From Alphaproteobacteria bacterium (GTDB lineage: Bacteria; Pseudomonadota; Alphaproteobacteria; UBA6615): a stretch of 37,654 nucleotides of DNA. The notes under the pieces are model-generated. The model worked only from the letters and a program-made list of their open reading frames with translations. It was not told the DNA's origin and searched no databases. The stretch lies in NCBI GenBank assembly GCA_965261975.1, contig CBDHEC010000055.1:1-37654 (forward strand), read 5' to 3'. The translations under genes were made by a program, and so were the position numbers. Positions 5,403 to 32,768 of the stretch are shown here, one piece after another (position 1 is the first letter of the stretch; every line of letters begins with the position of its first letter).

Positions 5403-6539
5403 ATGCGTCTCAAGTTCCTATTCATCGCCTTGTTCGGGCTTTCGGCCTGTGAGGCCACGGGGCCCGAACAGCATGGTACCAACGACATCAGCCGGTCGGA
5501 CAGAGCGGCATATGAACTGGCGGCGGCTGGGTGTCGAACGGCAACCACACCTGAACAGCGGATAAACGTATGCAGCGCCGTTATCGAAGCGGCCCCACGA
5601 ATCGAGACAGACTCGCAAGTGCGACGCAAAGTTCTCGCTCTCGCCCAAATGGGTCGGGGCTTGGCCTACTATCGGAAAGGGTTAACTAAACTGGCACTCG
5701 ACGACTTACAGGAGACTATTCAACTCACTCCGGAGGAGGCCAACGGCTATGTTCTGAGATCGGCGATCTATGAGAGACAGCGCAACTTCGCCGCAATGAT
5801 TCGCGATCTCGATCGGGCCGTCGAGATCGCACCAGATTCTGCGGAAATACTGGCAGTCCGTGCAGTTGGTCGAAGCAACCTGATATTCCCGCCCGCGCGC
5901 AAGTCCGGACCGCTGACGACAAACCGGGAAAAAGCAATCTACGAAAAGATGCTTGCCGACATTTCCCGGTCTCGCGACCTCGACCCCAACAATCCCCTTC
6001 CTGTAAGGGTTCTCGCTGATTCGCTCCTAAAACAAGGTGACCTCAACGCCGCTATCGCCACTTACAGCGAAGTGCTCGAAATCGACAGCAACCATGTCAA
6101 AGCAGTCAGTGGGCGTGCAGCTGCATATTTTCTGCGCGGTGATCACGCGGACGCAGCCCAAGACTATGAGCGCGCGATCAACCTGGCACCAAACAACCCC
6201 GACAACTACATGAAACTCGGCTGGATATACGCCGCCTCGCCCCATGACCACGTACGGGAGGGAACGCGCGCAATCGAAATGGCTTTGCAGGCAGATCGTC
6301 TGTCAAAGGGAAACAAGTCGTTCGCCTACACCTACCTGCTTCCGGCAGCCTTCGCCGAGGCGGGCCGCTTCGACGAGGCCGCGCGCGAAATGGAGCGCGT
6401 TATCTTGCAATATCGATCCTCGGTTGTTGAAGGCGACGATATCAGCGTTCTGCGCTCGCTCGGTTTGTCCATCGGAGCTCGAGCGCTCCTTGAACAGTTT
6501 CGGTCCGATAAACCGTTTCGGATTGAGCCGGCCAGCTAG
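5403..6539 (+). CDS. TPR-repeat lipoprotein
   Basis: Lipobox LSA-C after a hydrophobic stretch; repeated TPR-like units (RGLAYY...ALDDLQETIQLTP, AIATYSEVLEIDSN, AAQDYERAINLAPN); GGAG RBS. Confidence 0.8.
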   Translation: MRLKFLFIALFGLSACEATGPEQHGTNDISRSDRAAYELAAAGCRTATTPEQRINVCSAVIEAAPRIETDSQVRRKVLALAQMGRGLAYYRKGLTKLALDDLQETIQLTPEEANGYVLRSAIYERQRNFAAMIRDLDRAVEIAPDSAEILAVRAVGRSNLIFPPARKSGPLTTNREKAIYEKMLADISRSRDLDPNNPLPVRVLADSLLKQGDLNAAIATYSEVLEIDSNHVKAVSGRAAAYFLRGDHADAAQDYERAINLAPNNPDNYMKLGWIYAASPHDHVREGTRAIEMALQADRLSKGNKSFAYTYLLPAAFAEAGRFDEAAREMERVILQYRSSVVEGDDISVLRSLGLSIGARALLEQFRSDKPFRIEPAS

Positions 6540-6568
6540 TCTAGGCGTCGCCCCAACCTTACACCCCG

Positions 6569-7837
6569 TCACCCCCCGATAATCCCCGCCGGGCCCTTCT
6601 GGGCATCGGACAGGCCGCTCGGCGCACCGACACGTTCGGGCAACTCGAACCCACCCTGCATCTGCTCCACATAGGGGCCGACGCCGCCATGTTCGGGTAC
6701 GAGGATTTCGCGCTGGTGATCGTCGGCGATCTTCCCGGCGAACACGTCGTTGATCCAGTCCGCGAGATAGCCATAGAAGTCGATCCCGCCGAAGTTCGGG
6801 CGGTTGCGCGGGTTGTGGAAGTCGTTCTCGATCACCCACAGCTCCTTGGGCGCCGGCACCTTCTCGTAGATCGGCAGCACGGTCTCCAGCGGCGCCAGCG
6901 GGTCATACTCGCCGGTCACCTGAAGCGCCGGGCAGGTCACGTCGCCGGCCACGTCATCGAGTACCATCTTCGCGGCGAATTCATCGAACTCGTCCTCGTC
7001 ATGAATGCCCGCCATATACATGAACACCTGCTTGAAGCGCGGCGAGGCCTGCTCGAAGATCGCGGTCTTGGGTCCGTAGCAAGCGGCCGCCGTGGCAACG
7101 GCCTTCACCCGCTTGTCGAGTGCCGCCATGCGCATGCCCCAGTAAGACCCCATGGAGAAACCCGACACGGCGATCCGGTCGGGATCGACCTCGGGGCGCT
7201 CGCACAGATAATCGATGGCCGCCGATCCGGCACGCTCGTAGTTATCGAGCGTGACCCGGATCTTGCGGATGTTGCTCGTCCCCTGCCCCGGCCCGTCGAG
7301 GTGCAGGCAGTTCAGACCGCGCTCCACGAAGGGATGGCGCAGCGGGTCGACGAAGGCTTCCTTCGTCATGTCCATGCCCGGACAGAACACGACGGTCGGT
7401 GCCTTCTCCGCGCCGGGCACCATGTGGAGTACGCCCTGGATGAAGTTCCCCTCGAACGGGATTTCGACCCGCTCGATCGGGTGGGTCGAATGTTCCATCA
7501 CCTTGCCGAAGCATTTGAGCAGCATGTCATGCAGGTAAATCTTCTCGGGATTATCGTCCTCGAAGATCGTGTGCTGGGCCTCGCGGTAATGCTCGCTGGC
7601 GACCCAATAAAGCTCGGCAGCGGTTTTGGTGTGACCGGCCTTCTCGGCCTCTTCCGCGATCGCGACGACATGGCGGGCATGCTTGTCGACGACCCGGTGA
7701 ATCTGCGCGTACGACTTCACCTCCGGCGGCACGACCCGGTTGTCATAGGCAAAGTTCTGGACCCTGCCCGTGGTCTTGATGATCCAGTCGAGCATCCATT
7801 GCTGGTTATCGCGACGGCGTTCGGTTCGTTTCGACAT
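6569..7837 (-). CDS. Alpha/beta hydrolase, 2,6-dihydroxypseudooxynicotine hydrolase / FrsA-like family
   Basis: Motifs PGMDMTKE and DGPGQG, nucleophile elbow GFSMG, GEYDPL, and His in NDFH. Confidence 0.8.
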   Translation of the reverse strand: MSKRTERRRDNQQWMLDWIIKTTGRVQNFAYDNRVVPPEVKSYAQIHRVVDKHARHVVAIAEEAEKAGHTKTAAELYWVASEHYREAQHTIFEDDNPEKIYLHDMLLKCFGKVMEHSTHPIERVEIPFEGNFIQGVLHMVPGAEKAPTVVFCPGMDMTKEAFVDPLRHPFVERGLNCLHLDGPGQGTSNIRKIRVTLDNYERAGSAAIDYLCERPEVDPDRIAVSGFSMGSYWGMRMAALDKRVKAVATAAACYGPKTAIFEQASPRFKQVFMYMAGIHDEDEFDEFAAKMVLDDVAGDVTCPALQVTGEYDPLAPLETVLPIYEKVPAPKELWVIENDFHNPRNRPNFGGIDFYGYLADWINDVFAGKIADDHQREILVPEHGGVGPYVEQMQGGFELPERVGAPSGLSDAQKGPAGIIGG

Positions 7838-7978
7838 CTGGCTTCCCCCATTTGTTTTGCCCGCCAACGGCTCTTGTGCGGCGGTTTCTCGCGTGCCTCA
7901 ATGCTTCCGTGGTGCGGACCTTTAAAGCCCAATGCCACGGCGCATCGTTCCCGCCATCCAATCCGGTTTCGTCACTGA

Positions 7979-9176
7979 ATGTCCAGCCCCCGCAACATAA
8001 AACTGGTCCTCATACTGGCCCTAGTTTCAGGGCTCGGGCCGATCACGATTCACGTCATCCTGCCGGTCCTGCCGACGATCCAGCAGGTGTTCACGGCAAG
8101 CAGCGCCGTCACCCAGCTGACCCTGACGCTCGGTGTCCTTGCAATGGCGATCTCTACCATCGGCTACGGACCCGCGGCTGACAGGTTCGGACGCAAGCCC
8201 GTTCTCCTCGTCGGACTTCTGCTCTTCATCACGGGCAGCGGGATCTGCGTCTGGTCGCCGAACATCGAGACACTGATTTTCGGGCGCGTGGTGCAGGCCG
8301 TCGGCGGAGCGGCGGGCATGGTGGTTGCCCGCGCCACGATCCGCGACATGTTCAGCCGCGAGGATTCGGCACGCATGATCGGCCAGGTCATGTCGATTGT
8401 GGTGATATCGCCCATTATCTCTCCCGTGATCGGCGGTTTCATCGTGCAGTTCGCCGGCTGGCAATATGTGTTCATCCTGACAGCCGTCATGGGGCTGGTG
8501 ACGCTTACCTTCGCCGTGCCAAACATCCGCGAAACCCGCGTCGCAAACGCGCAGACGAGCAGCCTCGCGCAGACATTTCGTGCATTTCCATCATTGCTCC
8601 GTGACCCGGCCTTCCTCGCCTATGCCGGCTATGCCGGGTGTGGCATGGGCGTGTTCATGGTGGTCGCCGGCGGTGTGCCCTTCCTGATGGCCGACCTGTT
8701 CCAGCGCTCCCCGACCGCCTTCGGCCTGTTCTTCATGACCATGAGCGGCAGCTTCCTGGTGGGCACGGTTATCAGCTCGCGCATCACCTTGCGGGTCGGG
8801 CTCGACCGTATGGTCCGCATCGGCAGCACCGGATCGATGATTGCTGCATTGCTTGTCCCCGCTCTCTTCCTCGCTGGCATCCAAACACCTTGGGCCATTT
8901 TCCTGCCCGGGATCGTCATGGGCGTGTTCCACGGACTGGCGATGCCGAACGCGCAGGCCGGCGCGGTCAGCGTCAACCCGCAGGTCGCGGGTTCCGCTTC
9001 CCGGCCTCACGATGTTTCTTCAGATGACCATCGGCGCCGCATTCGGGCAGGCAGCGGGCATGCTGCCCCATGATTCAGCGCTCCCTGTCGCTATTATGAT
9101 CGCGCTCGCCGGACTGGGGGGCTTCCTCGCCTATAATGGGACCTTGTTTTTCGCGCGCAGGAAGAACACCCCATGA
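7979..9176 (+). CDS. Bcr/CflA family MFS drug transporter, apparent +1 frameshift at 9000-9002
   Basis: MFS motif GPAADRFGRKPVLL. Removing one C from CCC at 9000-9002 restores GSASGLTMFLQMTIG and runs to TGA 9176, which overlaps the next ATG. Confidence 0.85.
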
Positions 9177-18093: not shown

Positions 18094-18925
18094 CTAGCGT
18101 TCCCGGAAAGCCTCCGAACGGGTCTTCAGGACCGGCTGTATCAGATATTCCAACACGCGCTTCTCGCCCGTGTGAATATCGATCGTGGCTTGCATGCCCG
18201 GAATAATCGGCAGAGACCCGTCCACACCCAAGGCACTCTCCGTGGTCTCGACGACAACACGGAAATAATGCTGCCCGCTTCGATCGGTGTCGGCGTCCGC
18301 TGCGATACTGACAACACGTCCCTCAAGTCCGCCGTAGCGCACGAAGTCATAGGTGCTGACTTTCGCGACGGCACGCTGTCCCACCTCCACATGCCCGATA
18401 TCGCGCGGACCCAGCCGGGCCTCGATCAACAGGCGTTCGCGCGACGGGACGATCTGCATGATCGCGTCCCCCGGGCCGACGACCCCGCCAATCGTGTGAT
18501 AGGCCAGGTTTTGCACCACGCCTTCGATGGGGCTGGCGATCACCGCACGTGAACGTTGTTCGGTCGCCTTAACGAGGCGCTCGCGCTCGCGCGCAACTTC
18601 GAGCTCGACCAGCGTAATCTGCTCCGAAATCGCGCGCCGAAACTCAAGCGTGATTTCCCGAACACCCTCTTCCGCTTCGGCCAGTGCGGCCTTTGATCGC
18701 GGCAGGTTGGAGCGCAGGCGGTCAATCTCGCCTTTCAACTCTTCCAACTCTCGCTCTCTTTCGAGATGTTCCATGCGCGGTGTGAGCTCTTCTTGCAGAA
18801 GCGACTGGGACAAACGGAAACGTTCTTCGACCAACGGCAGGCTCGCGGCGAAGGCCCGTCGGCGGGCCTCAAGTTCGGCCACCTCGAGGGCACGCTGTTC
18901 GACACGCCCCTGCGCTCGCGCGAGG
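18094..18925 (-). pseudogene. HlyD-family type I secretion membrane-fusion protein, C-terminal part only
   Basis: Coiled coil followed by IASPIEGVV, GGVVGPG, YDFVRYGGLEG, PGMQATIDIHTG and AFRER. The N-terminal TM and lipoyl half are absent; the upstream frame is the antisense of the next gene. Confidence 0.85.
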
Positions 18926-19413
18926 ATGACCCCCTGATCCTGGCGGAGCATTTCCTGCAGGAATATTCGACGGAAGAGCGCAAGGAATTTGACGGCTTCT
19001 CCCGCGAGGCCGCTGCCGCGATCGTCAGTTATGACTGGCCGGGCAATGTGCGCGAACTGCAAAACGTCGTCCGCAATATGGTCGTGATGAATCCCGGCGG
19101 CGAAGTTGCAGCCGCGATGCTGCCGCCGCAGATTGCGAGCCTGGCGCCCGGCGGTGTTGGCCCCGAGGGCGCGGCGGCGCCGATGGCCACATCGGGGCTC
19201 GGCAGCGACCTGTCGGATACGATGTCCCCTGCCAACGCGCCGGATGACATTCGACCCCTGGAAGATACCGAACGCGACGCGATCGAACGGGCGATCGAAT
19301 TGTGTGACGGCAATGTGCGGATGGCGGCGACGTATCTCGAAGTCTCGCCCGCCACGCTTTACCGCAAGCGGGCCAAATGGGACGAATCCGAGCCGGCGGC
19401 CGACACAGACTAG
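18907..19413 (+). pseudogene. LuxO-like sigma54-dependent enhancer-binding protein, C-terminal part only (end of AAA+ plus HTH)
   Basis: PLRSRED, YDWPGNVRELQNVVRNMVVMN, IRPL..TE..AIERAI..CDGN...AA.YLEVSPATLYRK closely follow the Vibrio LuxO C-terminus as recalled. Receiver, Walker A and GAFTGA are missing. Confidence 0.85.
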
Positions 19414-19446
19414 GCCTCCGGCTCGCATTCTGGCCGCGATATCGCG

Positions 19447-19479
19447 TTTCACAATGCGATTTCGTGTCTCAAACTGAGA
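19447..19479. promoter_or_regulatory. Tandem 5-3-5 palindromes, candidate enhancer (UAS) sites
   Basis: TTTCA-CAA-TGCGA (19447-19459) and TCTCA-AAC-TGAGA (19467-19479), 20 bp centre to centre. Confidence 0.45.
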
Positions 19480-19591
19480 CCGCGAAGACGCGGCAGCGCG
19501 CCCCCCGAAGAGGTCTGTTTGTTGCGCGGATCGAGATTGATAAATCATATTATGTATCTGATTTAATTACTATTTTTTCAAATTCGATGCC

Positions 19592-19666
19592 GAAACAATA
19601 AAGGCGGCGACCAGATTGGACGCCGCCTTATTGGGGGAGGAGGACACAAACACACTCAAGTGTCCT
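19592..19666 (-). ncRNA. Sigma54-dependent ~75-nt small RNA with an anti-Shine-Dalgarno core
   Basis: Begins at the predicted sigma54 TSS. 5' hairpin AGGACAC/GTGTCCT, then UCCUCCUCCCCC, then terminator CAATAAGGCGGCG/CGCCGCCTTTATTG-TTT. Confidence 0.75.
19593..19633. terminator. Rho-independent terminator, probably bidirectional
   Basis: Stem AAGGCGGCG / CGCCGCCTT flanked by A/T tracts on both sides. Confidence 0.8.
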
Positions 19667-19677
19667 ACCCCTAACGA

Positions 19678-19694
19678 TGCAACCGGCGTGCCAG
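19678..19694 (-). promoter_or_regulatory. Sigma54 (-24/-12) promoter of the sRNA
   Basis: Minus strand CTGGCACGCCGGTTGCA matches consensus TGGCACG-N4-TTGCW with GG-N10-GC spacing. Confidence 0.88.
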
Positions 19695-19704
19695 TTGCAC
19701 GCAT

Positions 19705-19917
19705 TTATTGGCTTTTCAGCTGAAAATCGATCCGGCCGGCCAGTGTTTCGGCCTCTTCCGCGACTTCGAGCATGTGTTGCGCCTCGGAACGAAGGTTCTT
19801 GGCTTCCTTTCGCAGCATTGTGATCCAGCTGCGCATGGCCTCGCGGTCCGCATCAGAGTGGCCAACATCATTGGCAACATCGTGATTCCGGCCACGGATG
19901 AGAGATAGATTGTTCAT
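19705..19917 (-). CDS. Hypothetical 70-aa protein with predicted C-terminal coiled coil
   Basis: MNNLSLIRG...REAMRSWITMLRKEAKNLRSEAQHMLEVAEEAETLAGRIDFQLKSQ; ATG lies at the predicted TSS of a sigma54 promoter. Confidence 0.65.
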   Translation of the reverse strand: MNNLSLIRGRNHDVANDVGHSDADREAMRSWITMLRKEAKNLRSEAQHMLEVAEEAETLAGRIDFQLKSQ

Positions 19918-19928
19918 ACCCCCTTTAG

Positions 19929-19945
19929 AGCAATCTGCATGCCAA
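19929..19945 (-). promoter_or_regulatory. Sigma54 (-24/-12) promoter of the 70-aa ORF
   Basis: Minus strand TTGGCATGCAGATTGCT with GG-N10-GC spacing. Confidence 0.8.
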
Positions 19946-20051
19946 CTATTCCCCGTGCGATGGCTGTTGTGGTTAAGACCGTGCATCGCGAGAATAGTCC
20001 CGCTTCGATCGTCGGAGCGCCCTTCCGACCTGACACTGAGGCACGCCTTCA

Positions 20052-22271
20052 ATGCACCTGCTGAAGAACGGAAATCGGCCGTTTCACCTGGGGTCATTTC
20101 CTCTCGAAACGCTGCCTCGCGACGATAGTCTTGGGACCCTGGAAATTTCGCGGCCGCCCGCGCCGCCGGCCGACGATCGCCCGGCATCGCCGCTACTCGG
20201 AGAGGTCACCCGCAATTTCCGCGATATGTTTGCGCAATTCTCCGTCGGCGACGTTGCGCCCGAAACCGCACCCGATACAGACGATGTGGAACGCTGCACG
20301 GTGGACATTATGGGGGCGGCCTATTTCCTGGACGCAAGCCAGGCCGGTATCTGCCTGATCCCCCAGAGTGCTTGGCGTACCGGCGCGACGCCCCTGTCCC
20401 ACAGCCACGCAATCGTCATCATGGTCGAACATAGCCGCGTGCCCGACGACGAGCCGCTCTCGGCACAGTGGACCAAATCCGCAGTGGTCGAGACCGCCGA
20501 AATGCGGGCCACCGAGATTGCCGTCAACATCGCGGGCCATATCCGGCTGATGGGCTATGACGCGCGCGCCGACGTTCCCGGTGACCGGATGCTCGATGAA
20601 GAACGCCTCGCCGTGCTGGCCGGTATCGCCATCCGTAACGACGACGACAGCCTCGCGAACCCCTATATCGAGAATTTCACATTCGCCGTCATCACGACCG
20701 ATTATCAGCTCGAATGCGACCGCCCCCTGGCCGCCAAGGCAATGAACGCCAAGGGCCTGCGCTACTGGTGGGGCATCAACGACGCCCAGTCCGGTCGCGA
20801 ACGAAACCGCCGGGCCGGGCGCCCGTCACATGCCAGCCGCTACCCGATGGAAACGGTCAAACGCATTGACCGGCCCACGACACTCATTCTCGATGACGAA
20901 GTCCCGCGGGTGCCGAAGCGGGCGGCGTTCTTCGAACGCGCACTCCAGGGTGATCTCGGCGACAAGGCACAACGCGAACGCGCCCGGTTTGCCACCAAAC
21001 ATCCGCTCGCCCGCTCGATGGTGTCTTTGATCCGAGCCATGGTCCCGCACCAGGACGGCATCCCGACGACCGCACCGGACATGTCGAAATATTCCGATCC
21101 GGCCCAGAACAGCAAGGCCCTGAAGTCCCTGTCCTACTTCCTCGGGGCCGACCTGACCGGCATTTGCGAGATTCCCCGTTATGCCTGGTACTCTCACAAG
21201 GACGACGGCACCGAAATCGAGATGTATCACAAATACGCGGTCGTGATGCTCATCGACCAGGGCTTCGACACGATGGAAGGCGCGAGCGGCGACGACTGGA
21301 TTTCCGGCAGCCAGTCAATGCGCGGCTACCAGCGCGGGGCGGAAATTGCCGGCGTGATGTCCCACATGCTCGGCCAGCTGGGATTTTCTGCACGCGCGCA
21401 GACCAATGCCGACAGCGATGTGCTACAAATTCCCCTGGTCCTGCTCGCCGGACTGGGCGAGATGAGCCGGATCGGTGAGCTGGTGTTGAATCCGTTTGTC
21501 GGGCCACGTTTCAAATCCGTCGTCCTGACGACCGACATGCCTCTCGAAGCCGATAAGCCGATTGATTTTGGCCTCCAGACCTTCTGCAACAACTGCCTCA
21601 AATGCGCCCGCGAATGCCCCTGCGACGCCATACCCTTCGGCGACAAGGTGATGTTCAACGGCTACGAGATATGGAAACCGGATGCCGAACGCTGCGCGCG
21701 CTACCGTGTTACCAATCCGCACGGATCGGCCTGCGGGCGGTGCATGAAAACCTGCCCCATCAACAAGGTGGTCGATACCGATGGCGCGTTACTTACCCGC
21801 CTGGCGAGCTGGATGGGGGTCAACGCCCTTTTCCTGAAACCGGTCATGGTCCCGATTGCCACATGGCTGGACGATGCGCTCGGCAATGGCCGGCGGAACC
21901 TTAAAAAGAAATGGTGGTTCGATCACGAAGTCGTCGGCGACCGCACGGTTGCACCCAAGGGGGTGAACCAGCGCGAGATCGACCCGTCGCGAAAAGTCGA
22001 TCCGGCCAAGCAGCGCATGGCCTACTACCACGCCAACATGATGCCGCCACCCGATACCCCCGAACCCGTCCCCGTCGACCGCAAGGCGGCCATGGCGGCC
22101 GGCGCCCTGCTGGAGACACCGGACGAGGCGAAAGCGCGCGCCGCGGCGGGCAAACCGGCGCCGGCGCATTACACCCCTACACCGCCCATGGGGGCTGGGC
22201 CGGCAAAAAAACTGGCCGAGAACCCGTACGCGGCCGATTTCAAGGACGTAAAGGCAGCCGACGCCGACTGA
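20052..22271 (+). CDS. rdhA: Cobalamin-dependent catabolic reductive dehalogenase (NpRdhA/BhbA-like), no fused reductase
   Basis: Duplicated B12-fold halves (AAYFLDASQAGIC / SYFLGADLTGIC), TMEGASGDDWIS, AGLGEMSRIG, LNPFVGPRFKS; two 4Fe-4S motifs CNNCLKCARECP and C..CGRCMKTCP; no Tat signal. Confidence 0.92.
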   Translation: MHLLKNGNRPFHLGSFPLETLPRDDSLGTLEISRPPAPPADDRPASPLLGEVTRNFRDMFAQFSVGDVAPETAPDTDDVERCTVDIMGAAYFLDASQAGICLIPQSAWRTGATPLSHSHAIVIMVEHSRVPDDEPLSAQWTKSAVVETAEMRATEIAVNIAGHIRLMGYDARADVPGDRMLDEERLAVLAGIAIRNDDDSLANPYIENFTFAVITTDYQLECDRPLAAKAMNAKGLRYWWGINDAQSGRERNRRAGRPSHASRYPMETVKRIDRPTTLILDDEVPRVPKRAAFFERALQGDLGDKAQRERARFATKHPLARSMVSLIRAMVPHQDGIPTTAPDMSKYSDPAQNSKALKSLSYFLGADLTGICEIPRYAWYSHKDDGTEIEMYHKYAVVMLIDQGFDTMEGASGDDWISGSQSMRGYQRGAEIAGVMSHMLGQLGFSARAQTNADSDVLQIPLVLLAGLGEMSRIGELVLNPFVGPRFKSVVLTTDMPLEADKPIDFGLQTFCNNCLKCARECPCDAIPFGDKVMFNGYEIWKPDAERCARYRVTNPHGSACGRCMKTCPINKVVDTDGALLTRLASWMGVNALFLKPVMVPIATWLDDALGNGRRNLKKKWWFDHEVVGDRTVAPKGVNQREIDPSRKVDPAKQRMAYYHANMMPPPDTPEPVPVDRKAAMAAGALLETPDEAKARAAAGKPAPAHYTPTPPMGAGPAKKLAENPYAADFKDVKAADAD

Positions 22272-22310
22272 CCGGCACCTCACATTTCAAATTCATGTAT
22301 GGAGACAAGA

Positions 22311-23036
22311 ATGGCCAACTTCGTTTTGGTTCACGGTGCCTGGCACGGCGGCTGGTGCTGGTCGCGCATCACACCGCATCTGCGCGCCGACGGACATGAC
22401 GTGTACACCCCCACGATGACCGGGTTCGGCGAACGCTCGCACCTGCTGACACCGGATATCGGGCTCGAGACCAACGTCACCGACATCGCCAACGTCCTCG
22501 AATGGGAATCGCTCGAGAATGTCATCCTCGTGGGAGCGAGCTATGCCGGCATGGTGACGACCAGCGTTGCCGATCGCATGCCCGAGCGGATCGCTGCCCT
22601 GGTCTATATCAACGCCTTCATCGCAGCCGACGGCGTGTCCCAGAACGACATGCTTCCCGACTGGCGGCGCGAAATGATCGAAAAAGAAGTGGCCGCGGAC
22701 CCGGACGCATGGCGCATGCCTCCCCCCGCACCCGACCTCATCGGCGTGGACGACCCGGACGACGCCGCCTGGATCGCCGAGAAAATGACGATCCAGTCCG
22801 CCAAGACGTTCCACGACAGGGCCACAATCACCGGCGCATTGGATGCGATCACAAACCGCACCTATATCCGTGCAACCGGCTACCCCAACACGACATTCGA
22901 CGCGAACGTCGCGGCATTTGACGAACATCCGGGCTGGCGCGCCGAGATTCTCGACACCAGCCACGATGCCATGATCACGGCCGTCGATGATGTGGTCCGT
23001 ATCCTTAGGGAAGTCGCTGCCAGCGTGGCGAACTGA
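22311..23036 (+). CDS. Alpha/beta hydrolase (esterase, Abhydrolase_6 / SABP2-like)
   Basis: FVLVHGAWHGGWCW, nucleophile GASYAG, His in SHDAM. Confidence 0.9.
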   Translation: MANFVLVHGAWHGGWCWSRITPHLRADGHDVYTPTMTGFGERSHLLTPDIGLETNVTDIANVLEWESLENVILVGASYAGMVTTSVADRMPERIAALVYINAFIAADGVSQNDMLPDWRREMIEKEVAADPDAWRMPPPAPDLIGVDDPDDAAWIAEKMTIQSAKTFHDRATITGALDAITNRTYIRATGYPNTTFDANVAAFDEHPGWRAEILDTSHDAMITAVDDVVRILREVAASVAN

Positions 23037-23045
23037 AGTCCCCGC

Positions 23046-23077
23046 AACAAAAAGAGCCGCCCCCTGAGGGGCGGCTC
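23046..23077 (-). terminator. Rho-independent terminator
   Basis: Stem GAGCCGCCCC / GGGGCGGCTC with a 4-nt loop, followed on the minus strand by TTTTTGTT. Confidence 0.85.
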
Positions 23078-23134
23078 CGTGAGCGGGCATTGTGCCAGCC
23101 CATGGTCTTTGAAAGACCTGTGTCTCTATCCGGC

Positions 23135-23206
23135 CTAGAGAGGTTGCTCCATAGTCCGAACCCGACACGTTGGGTTGAACATAATGCCTATCATCTCACT
23201 CGACAT
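23135..23206 (-). CDS. Candidate 23-aa peptide MSSEMIGIMFNPTCRVRTMEQPL
   Basis: GAAAGGAGGTGATCC-G-ATG; AGGAGG sits 7 nt from the ATG; TAG at 23135. Confidence 0.5.
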   Translation of the reverse strand: MSSEMIGIMFNPTCRVRTMEQPL

Positions 23207-23300
23207 CGGATCACCTCCTTTCAATTGTTGAACGGTATCGAAACCCTAGCATCGGATTCCGCGTCGCCTGCAACTGGAAAATGAGCCGTTGGCGAAGACG

Positions 23301-27790: not shown

Positions 27791-27931
27791 TTTCGATCCT
27801 CCTCCGAAACCATGAAATCGCTGTATACCACCCCCGAGCAGGCCCCCGAAAGACGCTGTTGGCGTAAATCCATTGACATGCGGGCACACCCAACATGAAC
27901 CTGTCGGAACTTATGAAATGGAGAACGGCAC

Positions 27932-31669: not shown

Positions 31670-32635
31670 CTAACCCGCCACGACGGTGTTGGAGAGTTTG
31701 CCGATACCTTCGACCTCTACCTCAACCACATCCCCCGGCTTCATGAATACCGGCGGCTTGCGGCCGACACCCACGCCCGGTGGCGAACCGGTGGTCACGA
31801 TGTCGCCGGGGCTGAAGCGGTAGAATTTCGAGTAGTAGCTGATGATCTGGGGCAGATTGAAAATCAGGTCATCGGTGTTCGACGACTGCATGACCTCGCC
31901 GTTCAATGTCACCGTCAGTTGAAGGTCGTGGGGATCGGCGATCTCGTCCTTGGTGACGATAACCGGCCCACAGGGGCAGAAGGTCGGGAGCTGCTTGCCC
32001 AGGATGTTGTGGTCCCAGGCGGCAATTGCCTCGAACGGTTTTGTGACCGTGAAGATAGGGCCCACCCAGTCGCGCGCGGAGACATCGTTGGCGATCGTAT
32101 AGCCGGCGACGTAATCCATCGCCTCGTCCTCGGAGACGTTGTGACAGGGTTTGCCGAACACGAATGTCATCTCACCTTCATAATCGATCATGTCGGGGCA
32201 TTGCGGCGGCGCGACGATCTCACCACGGTGCCCTGTCAGCGCCGGGTGGGTCATCGTGAACCCAGTGGGACGCGGCGGCACCGGCGTGCCCTCCATTTCC
32301 TCCAGATGCGCACGGTAGTTCATGCCGATGGACAAGATGATGGTCGGATCGGGCACGGGCGGCAGGAACGACGCATCGTCCCAGGCCTGCAGGACGCCCG
32401 TATCGCGCAATCCGGCCTGCTCGTCGGCCGACATGCCAGCCACAGCGTCGAGGCAGGCCTGTGCTGCGCCGAGCGCGGCATCGCCGCCGGCGAGAAGTTC
32501 GCGCATCTCCGCCGGTACCGCCTTCGCCGCGTCCAGTGTGCTGCGCAGCGCGACCAGGTCGAGCAGCTCATTGTCAGCCGTGACGGCGGCGACGTGGGCG
32601 TGATCGGTGCCTCTTTCGATTGTGGCCAGCTTCAT
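31670..32635 (-). CDS. Fumarylacetoacetate hydrolase family protein
   Basis: GMNYRAH, DYEGE, GYTIANDVSARD and TGSPPGVG. Confidence 0.93.
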   Translation of the reverse strand: MKLATIERGTDHAHVAAVTADNELLDLVALRSTLDAAKAVPAEMRELLAGGDAALGAAQACLDAVAGMSADEQAGLRDTGVLQAWDDASFLPPVPDPTIILSIGMNYRAHLEEMEGTPVPPRPTGFTMTHPALTGHRGEIVAPPQCPDMIDYEGEMTFVFGKPCHNVSEDEAMDYVAGYTIANDVSARDWVGPIFTVTKPFEAIAAWDHNILGKQLPTFCPCGPVIVTKDEIADPHDLQLTVTLNGEVMQSSNTDDLIFNLPQIISYYSKFYRFSPGDIVTTGSPPGVGVGRKPPVFMKPGDVVEVEVEGIGKLSNTVVAG

Positions 32636-32768
32636 GACATCCCCCCCAATGTTATATTCGCGCGCCGAAAATTCCCTTCACGGCATTCGCCATCCAATTT
32701 ACGGTTCATTCTGGCGGAATTCCACATCAAGCCGACCGCCGCTTACGGGGATTATGGGGAGGCACGCA

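Follow-up and report, generated by a model that had tools for sequence, protein, structure and literature searches.

A probable sigma-54-dependent small RNA gene in the 3'UTR of a conserved 70-codon ORF of an alphaproteobacterium

The minus strand between a 70-codon ORF and the 3' end of a gene on the opposite strand, in a 37,654-nucleotide stretch of DNA from a marine alphaproteobacterium (the window, by which we mean the whole stretch that was analysed), raises the question of whether a gap of ~100 nt encodes a small RNA of its own or is simply the end of the mRNA of the ORF. An earlier note, made by reading the sequence, had proposed an unannotated ~75-nt RNA at this place, with a consensus sigma-54 promoter, a 5' stem at the predicted +1, an anti-Shine-Dalgarno (anti-SD) core and an intrinsic terminator. 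The minus-strand sequence that it quoted is found exactly as quoted, and its interpretation of the region as a small RNA (sRNA) stands in all of the sequence features and agrees with a conserved block described below; the kinship that it raised with the suhB/alpha-r8 and cuckoo/alpha-r14 families does not stand, and part of the core is predicted to be paired. A second sigma-54 promoter, a LuxO-like activator and the truncation of that activator, none of which the note mentioned, can now be added. The best explanation, which we regard as probable, is that the locus is a small RNA gene that is sigma-54-dependent, embedded in the 3'UTR of the 70-codon ORF (ORF70) and anti-SD in its action. The features of the locus are collected in Table 1.

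Table 1. Features of the small RNA locus and its surroundings in the window, and their identity to the related genome L001.
Feature	Positions	Strand	Identity to L001	Remarks
P1, sigma-54-like promoter TGGCATGCAGATTGC	19930-19944	(-)	copy identical	1 mismatch
Intergenic region upstream of ORF70			79%	
ORF70, 70-aa conserved gene, no known family	19705-19917 (ATG 19917, stop 19707-19705)	(-)	90%	predicted sRNA in its 3'UTR
Promoter-to-terminator block			105/108 columns (97%)	
P2, sigma-54 promoter core TGGCAC-N5-TTGC, TGGCACGCCGGTTGC	19679-19693	(-)	copy identical, at 6225-6239	perfect consensus match
Predicted ~75-nt sRNA body: 5' hairpin, C-rich linker, terminator, U-rich tail	19592-19667	(-)		fold and conservation
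5' hairpin, 7-bp stem AGGACAC/GUGUCCU, 12-nt loop UUGAGUGUGUUU	19641-19666	(-)		19666-19660 pairs with 19647-19641
C-rich core UCCUCCUCCCCC	19633-19644	(-)		predicted single-stranded only at 19640-19634
Intrinsic terminator hairpin, then short UUUC tail	19596-19633	(-)		A-rich 5' flank, U-rich 3' side; bidirectional in shape
Downstream spacer			68%	
Inverted repeat TCGCATTnTG-N17-CAnAATGCGA	19423-19459			just 3' of activator stop; L001 6460-6496
LuxO-like activator, 3' remnant (lid + HTH, residues ~328-499)	18907-19413	(+)		convergent with predicted sRNA; intact 499 aa in L001
HlyD-family type I secretion adaptor, 5'-truncated	18094-18900	(-)		TIGR01843 positions 154-422 of 422

Along the minus strand the order is P1, ORF70, P2, the RNA element, an AT-rich spacer and the 3' end of the opposite-strand gene. 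P2, which is the consensus promoter of the earlier note, carries the GG and GC elements of sigma-54 promoters at their conserved spacing and is the sole perfect TGGCAC-N5-TTGC in the window, where 0.08 would be expected from shuffled sequences (8 of 100 shuffles contained one or more). By the numbering convention for sigma-54 promoters the C of the GC element is -12, and true starts vary by 1-2 bases; counted in this way, transcription from P2 is predicted to start at 19667 (U) or 19666 (A). No enhancer or activator site could be assigned near P1 or P2, and rpoN is absent from the window.

The 76-nt RNA that would result folds with a minimum free energy of -32.7 kcal/mol (z = -6.0), and none of 200 shuffled sequences folds equally well. 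As the earlier note had it, a 5' stem begins at the predicted start, in the form of a 7-bp hairpin that opens at +1/+2 (19666). The proposed anti-SD core is present as well, but only 7 of its 12 bases, CCUCCCC, are predicted to be free in the fold of the short RNA (probability of being unpaired ~1.0); of the others, the first four form part of the 5' stem and the last one pairs at the foot of the terminator hairpin. The terminator was also rightly recognized, being a strong hairpin (19633-19596) followed by a U-rich tail, and its reverse strand scores too with a covariance model built from the two copies compared below. A simple terminator scan did not list this hairpin because its 11-nt apical region exceeds the loop limit of the scan. 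Downstream of the RNA, the minus strand holds nothing for which the RNA could be a leader.

Conservation of the element was assessed against one related genome, a Rhodospirillaceae MAG (L001), so that the comparison comprises two sequences in all. L001 was found by a genome scan whose ORF70 alignment comprised 14 proteins out of 17 and omitted three 43-aa fragments, and is the 1 confirmed locus among the at least 583 pattern matches listed. It is collinear with the window over 25196-18907, at 85% identity. Three columns of the promoter-to-terminator block differ, two of them in the terminator loop and the third at the outermost base of the block, which precedes TGGCAC by 5 nt. The RNA proper differs nowhere but in the terminator loop, and the stretch 19592-19665 is identical in 72 of 75 alignment columns; identity in the flanks of the block is 68-80%. 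Conservation begins 5 nt before TGGCAC, resumes past the terminator loop and stops at the end of the U-tract, and the longest perfectly conserved run in the 6,317 aligned columns (6.3 kb) is one of 79 nt, from 19698 to 19620. A longest run in this position is what a discrete transcription unit would predict. The binomial probability of at least 105 identities in 108 columns is 1e-7 at a background identity of 80% and 9e-5 at 86%, and elsewhere in the alignment another run of 100 columns reaches the same level of conservation (99/100, at 23212-23113). The stems, that of the 5' hairpin included, are identical in both copies and show zero compensatory changes; covariation lends no support, since there are two sequences only and no substitution in any stem.

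A search of 45.8 kb (the window plus L001) with the covariance model from the two copies revealed no paralogue, its matches being the two copies themselves, the opposite-strand terminators and noise of at most 12 bits. Nor did blastn match a 1-kb query to plasmids, and the 44-aa shadow frame that crosses the RNA, used as a protein query, revealed no further copies. Seven plasmid records that blastn returned for the 116-nt element at E <= 10, each covering at most 37% of the query at E >= 1, were judged to be chance matches.

An explanation that competes with a small RNA gene, and that we consider unlikely, sees in the region nothing more than the 3'UTR and (bidirectional) terminator that end the ORF70 mRNA and the convergent activator gene, in which case the sigma-54-like sequence would be unused and kept as an RNA hairpin or by chance. 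ORF70 has no other terminator, the hairpin is flanked by A-rich and U-rich sequence and both of its strands score, and the P2 core is part of a palindrome (TGCAAC...GTTGCA) that can fold as an RNA hairpin within the ORF70 3'UTR. Yet the outer part of that palindrome hairpin is not maintained in L001, and a perfect core, already rare on the scale of a whole window, would be rarer still by chance within the ~100-nt gap. A plain 3'UTR should moreover drift like the spacer, which is 68% identical, whereas the block is 97% identical. The earlier note had set its small RNA against a hairpin that acts only as the terminator of the 70-aa ORF mRNA; the hairpin is indeed the sole terminator of ORF70, but the two readings are not exclusive, because a small RNA gene at this place would be the 3'UTR and only terminator of ORF70 too.

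ORF70 itself is, to judge from its relatives, a real gene. Its homologues in a large protein set form 17 protein clusters at 71-100% identity, with 9 representatives at E <= 0.001 among 1.84 billion, and the codon positions that it shares with L001 (66/71 first, 68/71 second and 57/71 third positions) place the changes mostly in third positions. The protein has no Pfam match (E <= 10) and belongs to no NCBIfam family, its Atlas matches (at most 0.81) are uninformative, and its AF2 model consists of one long helix, residues 22-69 (pLDDT 82.9). When one mismatch is allowed, the window contains two sigma-54 cores (P1 and P2) against 2.6 expected, so that P1 has no significance by number alone, and it is where it lies and how it is conserved that speak for it. 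The ORF70 ATG follows the -12 C of P1 at a distance of 13 nt, a spacing that is the same in L001 although the intervening sequence is not conserved, and P1 lies 250 nt upstream of P2 with the same spacing from -12 to the start. The predicted start is therefore the base before the ATG, which would leave no leader or a leader of 1 nt, and the ORF70 mRNA is probably leaderless. An apparent ribosome-binding site (RBS), AAAGGGGG, would by this prediction not be transcribed from P1. Autoregulation of ORF70 by the RNA was considered and rejected, as the apparent RBS precedes the predicted start and has not been kept in L001; if the mRNA is leaderless as predicted, the RNA would therefore not regulate ORF70 through a Shine-Dalgarno sequence.

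No terminator intervenes between ORF70 and the RNA hairpin, and the hairpin at 19633-19596 is the only terminator downstream of ORF70; transcripts from P1 should therefore cross P2 and end at the same hairpin, so that the element also serves as the ORF70 3'UTR. In the succession of stop codon (19705-19707), predicted promoter (19679-19693) and terminator (19633-19596), the locus has the layout of a 3'UTR-embedded sRNA with its own promoter, and ORF70 and the RNA might best be annotated as one regulatory unit. The fold of the longer transcript differs from that of the short RNA in that a GGGG at 19671-19668 pairs with four C's of the free stretch, by which their probability of being unpaired falls from ~1.0 to 0.01-0.25 and only a 3-nt bulge of the C-stretch stays open. 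The folding model thus predicts two forms, a long one in which the C-stretch is masked and a short one in which it is open.

A longer transcript would also admit another unlikely explanation, according to which the small RNA is made only by nuclease processing of the P1-initiated ORF70 mRNA, as CcsR1-4 are from ccaF1, and P2 is inactive or merely binds the sigma-54 holoenzyme. Any transcript from P1 must contain both ORF70 and the RNA, and there is a precedent in a ~70-aa gene that is followed by CCUCCUCCC sRNAs processed by RNase E (PMC8034643). Against processing as the only source stands the perfect promoter, placed so that its start is the exact base of the 5' hairpin, as well as the masking of the seed in the unprocessed form, which fits two distinct forms and does not require processing.

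For the small RNA gene that we prefer, we picture the following course of events. The sigma-54 RNA polymerase, switched on by an enhancer-binding activator, would start at ~19667/19666, and transcription would stop at the hairpin that ends near 19596. The resulting RNA of ~75 nt would consist of a 5' hairpin, the unpaired CCUCCCC and a terminator that runs out in a U-rich tail. Its free C-stretch, together with flanking bases as the stem breathes, would then pair with the G-rich Shine-Dalgarno sequences of target mRNAs and block ribosome binding. The RNA gene would be embedded in the 3'UTR of ORF70, which would have its own sigma-54 promoter and the terminator in common; in the longer transcript the C-stretch would be masked by the upstream GGGG, and only the short form, initiated at P2 (or processed), would be active. 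The activator is most likely to be the LuxO-like response regulator that is encoded convergently in L001 (see below).

Potential targets within the window were sought by a duplex-energy scan of 25,084 windows, in which the best non-self matches are mostly inside genes and nothing stands out. A start region is involved in one of the best 15 duplexes, that of an FAA-hydrolase-family gene (32621-32650, -21.8 kcal/mol). The RBS singled out by the earlier note, GGAGGAGGA before an MBL-fold hydrolase gene, is present on the minus strand at 27797-27805, where an in-frame GTG (27790) follows after 6 nt; it is outside the best 15 duplexes of the whole-window scan, and it can therefore be taken as a generic match, as the note itself had cautioned that such matches are. 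Also unlikely, in our estimation, is a mode of action other than anti-SD pairing, in which the RNA would work in cis, bind a protein or serve as a sponge (for example on ORF70 mRNA stability, or by titrating an RNA-binding protein, possibly ORF70). In favour of such a mode, only 7 seed bases are free, the RNA including its 12-nt loop is invariant, ORF70 is an uncharacterised helical protein that is always encoded upstream and no specific target emerged from the duplex scan. Against it, repeated protein-binding motifs are absent (there is one GGA-type motif, buried in a stem), the ORF70 mRNA is predicted to be leaderless and hence no SD target, and an unpaired C-rich stretch beside a terminator is the usual signature of SD-occluding sRNAs (PMC4615179).

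With regard to known RNA families, the whole window gave 0 Rfam matches at the gathering score, and at E <= 10 (queries of 601 nt and 121 nt) the only matches were weak ones to unrelated families, which either involved the terminator or fell on the wrong strand and which all scored at or below 19.3 bits against gathering scores of 40-533. The affinities to suhB and ar14/cuckoo that the earlier note had left for an Rfam search to decide found no match at either level. Alpha-r14 is in Rfam. Membership in suhB/alpha-r8 (MmgR), cuckoo/alpha-r14 or Qrr was rejected, none of these having a match even at E <= 10, and the RNA is therefore not one of them by its covariance-model results. SuhB/alpha-r8 (MmgR) is an alphaproteobacterial sRNA with C-rich anti-SD-like motifs, and the RNA is like it in host class and in having such a motif and unlike it in giving no match to its Rfam model.

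The cuckoo family is defined by 2-4 hairpins with CCUCCUCCC in each loop (PMC4615179). The exact 9-mer occurs once in the RNA (19643-19635), across the 3' stem arm and the linker, and the one hairpin other than the terminator has a different loop, UUGAGUGUGUUU; since its single CCUCCUCCC lies in stem arm and linker and not in hairpin loops, the RNA is outside this definition. What it has in common with cuckoo/alpha-r14 and CcsR1-4 with CcaF1 (Rhodobacter, Sinorhizobium) is the exact 9-mer and an alphaproteobacterial host. The Rhodobacter ccaF1-CcsR1-4 locus, described as a 71-aa gene with C-rich sRNAs in its 3'UTR and RNase E processing (PMC8034643), is further similar in that the RNA is in the 3'UTR of a ~70-aa gene, with the terminator in common (PMC8034643, PMC4615179). 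The differences are that ORF70 is not a DUF1127 protein, and that sigma-54 promoters and an own promoter for the RNA are predicted here, as opposed to an RpoHI/HII promoter and RNase E processing in the Rhodobacter system.

Embedding of an sRNA in a 3'UTR has parallels in other bacteria. One is GlnZ, a sigma-54-linked 3'UTR sRNA which is released by processing and not made from its own promoter (PMC9731577). The locus is like GlnZ, DapZ and MicL in that the sRNA lies past the stop codon, has the terminator of the mRNA in common and has its promoter between or inside the upstream gene. DapZ and MicL are 3'UTR-embedded sRNAs with their own internal promoters. All three differ from the present case in that they belong to other bacteria and have other sequences, and in that sigma-54 promoters are predicted here for both the mRNA and the sRNA. 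In these respects the RNA looks like a new sRNA family of a known kind, sigma-54-driven and 3'UTR-embedded with a C-rich seed, and if it is expressed, it would give a little-studied lineage of marine Alphaproteobacteria a new family that Rfam does not contain. The predicted promoter, start, seed and terminator have clear limits, which makes the RNA easy to test.

The regulator of such a gene might be suggested by its neighbour. The L001 locus has, convergent with the RNA, a gene (6506-8005, minus in the locus) whose 499-aa product is a REC-AAA+-HTH activator that retains an intact GAFTGA motif. Its best NCBIfam model is Vibrio LuxO, which leads NtrC by ~190 bits (572.7 against 379), at a score below the LuxO equivalog cut-off of 800 bits, so that the protein is LuxO-like and not LuxO by that model; its best PDB match is also LuxO (5ep0, 424 bits, against 307 for the next). 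We regard this activator as the obvious candidate for the regulator of the RNA, to which it is linked by adjacency, because its best match is LuxO and because LuxO together with sigma-54 activates the Qrr sRNAs, among which qrr1 adjoins luxO (PMC11443567). Of that arrangement, the locus has the sigma-54 promoter and, in L001, a neighbour that is LuxO-like, below the cut-off and convergent; in the window this neighbour is truncated.

Qrr sRNAs have four hairpins, and the RNA differs from Qrr1-5 in having two, in its C-rich anti-SD seed, in showing no similarity of sequence or structure, in its alphaproteobacterial host and in its placement, which is convergent with and downstream of the activator gene, not divergent and upstream. 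It is like the Qrr1-5/LuxO system of the Vibrionaceae in its prediction as a short sRNA of Hfq type with a sigma-54 promoter and an intrinsic terminator, and in adjoining (in L001) the gene of a LuxO-like REC-AAA+-HTH activator, as qrr1 adjoins luxO (PMC11443567). LuxO sites (TTGCAW3TGCAA) lie ~90-120 bp upstream of the qrr start (PMC11443567). At up to 2 mismatches, no such site was found upstream of P1 or P2; the window as a whole has 9 matches against 13 expected, which is chance level, and the only one nearby (19447-19459) is downstream. CrcZ/CbrB and GlmY/GlrR are further cases in which the gene of a two-component NtrC-family activator lies beside a sigma-54-dependent sRNA gene. They are unlike the present locus in that those RNAs act by protein sequestration or as decoys, are longer and are gammaproteobacterial. 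In the literature we found no description of this RNA or of a LuxO-linked sRNA in Alphaproteobacteria.

The window retains only a 3' remnant of the activator gene, the frame of which corresponds to residues 328-493 of the L001 protein (138 of 166 identical) and from which the receiver and ATPase domains are gone. The HlyD-family adaptor gene that faces it is likewise without its first ~153 model positions, the N-terminal third. The alignment of the window with L001 ends at 18907, and the two remnants are joined head to head at ~18900-18907; relative to L001, one deletion has removed both 5' halves and whatever lay between them. In the genome of the window, the RNA and ORF70 would accordingly be either orphaned and silent or served by another activator. 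Elsewhere, LuxO-like genes are found in 137 records of plasmids and chromids, all of them less than 60% identical, and two Azospirillum plasmids (L002 and L003; NC_013859.1 and NC_016624.1) encode LuxO-like activators ~49% identical to the L001 protein. The four stretches examined in these two plasmids contain no perfect sigma-54 core, and the downstream stretches contain none with up to one mismatch; a C-rich sRNA is absent from them, and no covariance-model match is better than 9.4 bits. In both plasmids the LuxO-like gene is in an operon with a protein of ~1,270-1,300 aa annotated as a response regulator, next to gltA.

Taken together with the neighbour, the preferred small RNA gene allows a wider reading, which we put forward as tentative and rather doubtful: that a LuxO-family phosphorelay of marine Rhodospirillaceae has its own sigma-54 output sRNA, with a C-rich anti-SD seed and a sequence unrelated to Qrr, that this RNA comes under the same control as a helical protein of 70 aa with a leaderless mRNA, the 3'UTR of which contains the RNA in masked form, and that some strains, the present one among them, have lost the activator by deletion. 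If this were true, the LuxO-sRNA switch would have been invented independently, or would have a deep relative, outside the Gammaproteobacteria. What would set the locus apart from a routine sRNA call is its pairing with a LuxO-like activator, in a type of circuit so far characterised in vibrios, a seed predicted to be masked or unmasked according to which of two sigma-54 promoters makes the transcript, and a natural variant in which the activator is deleted.

Several minor features of the surrounding sequence deserve mention. The interval from the sRNA terminator to the activator gene includes an AT-rich block (19540-19575; ~6350-6385 in L001) that is conserved in part and stands in a context of ~60% GC; in the window it contains a short palindrome, and in L001 a sequence that we take to fit the IHF consensus. 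The inverted repeat at 19423-19459 has 10-nt arms that are conserved and a 17-nt spacer that has diverged in L001, is a candidate terminator or protein-binding dyad and holds the only nearby LuxO-consensus-like match (2 mismatches, chance level). On the other side of ORF70, an inverted repeat GTCGGA-N7-TCCGAC (20011-20029) lies between ORF70 and a divergent gene, 70-85 bp upstream of the P1 -24 element and 23-41 bp upstream of the ATG of the reductive-dehalogenase-like gene; its arms are kept and its spacer is changed in L001, and it is a candidate activator or repressor site. That divergent gene (20052-22271, plus strand), which is syntenic in L001, encodes a protein of 739 aa in which a 4Fe-4S dicluster accompanies a reductive dehalogenase domain (TIGR02486, 173.7 bits). 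Farther along, 23053-23230 on the minus strand is a second highly conserved small unit, which contains the stretch with 99/100 identical columns mentioned above, with a full-length SD sequence AAAGGAGGTGATCC, a 23-codon ORF from 23205 and a strong terminator. This unit overlaps the start of a 291-aa ORF without family (22293-23168), the 5' end of which may be mis-called, and it matches the Caulobacter sRNA CC2171 of Rfam (RF01867) over its full length at a sub-threshold score (37.3 bits, E 1.4e-6, where the gathering score is 75).
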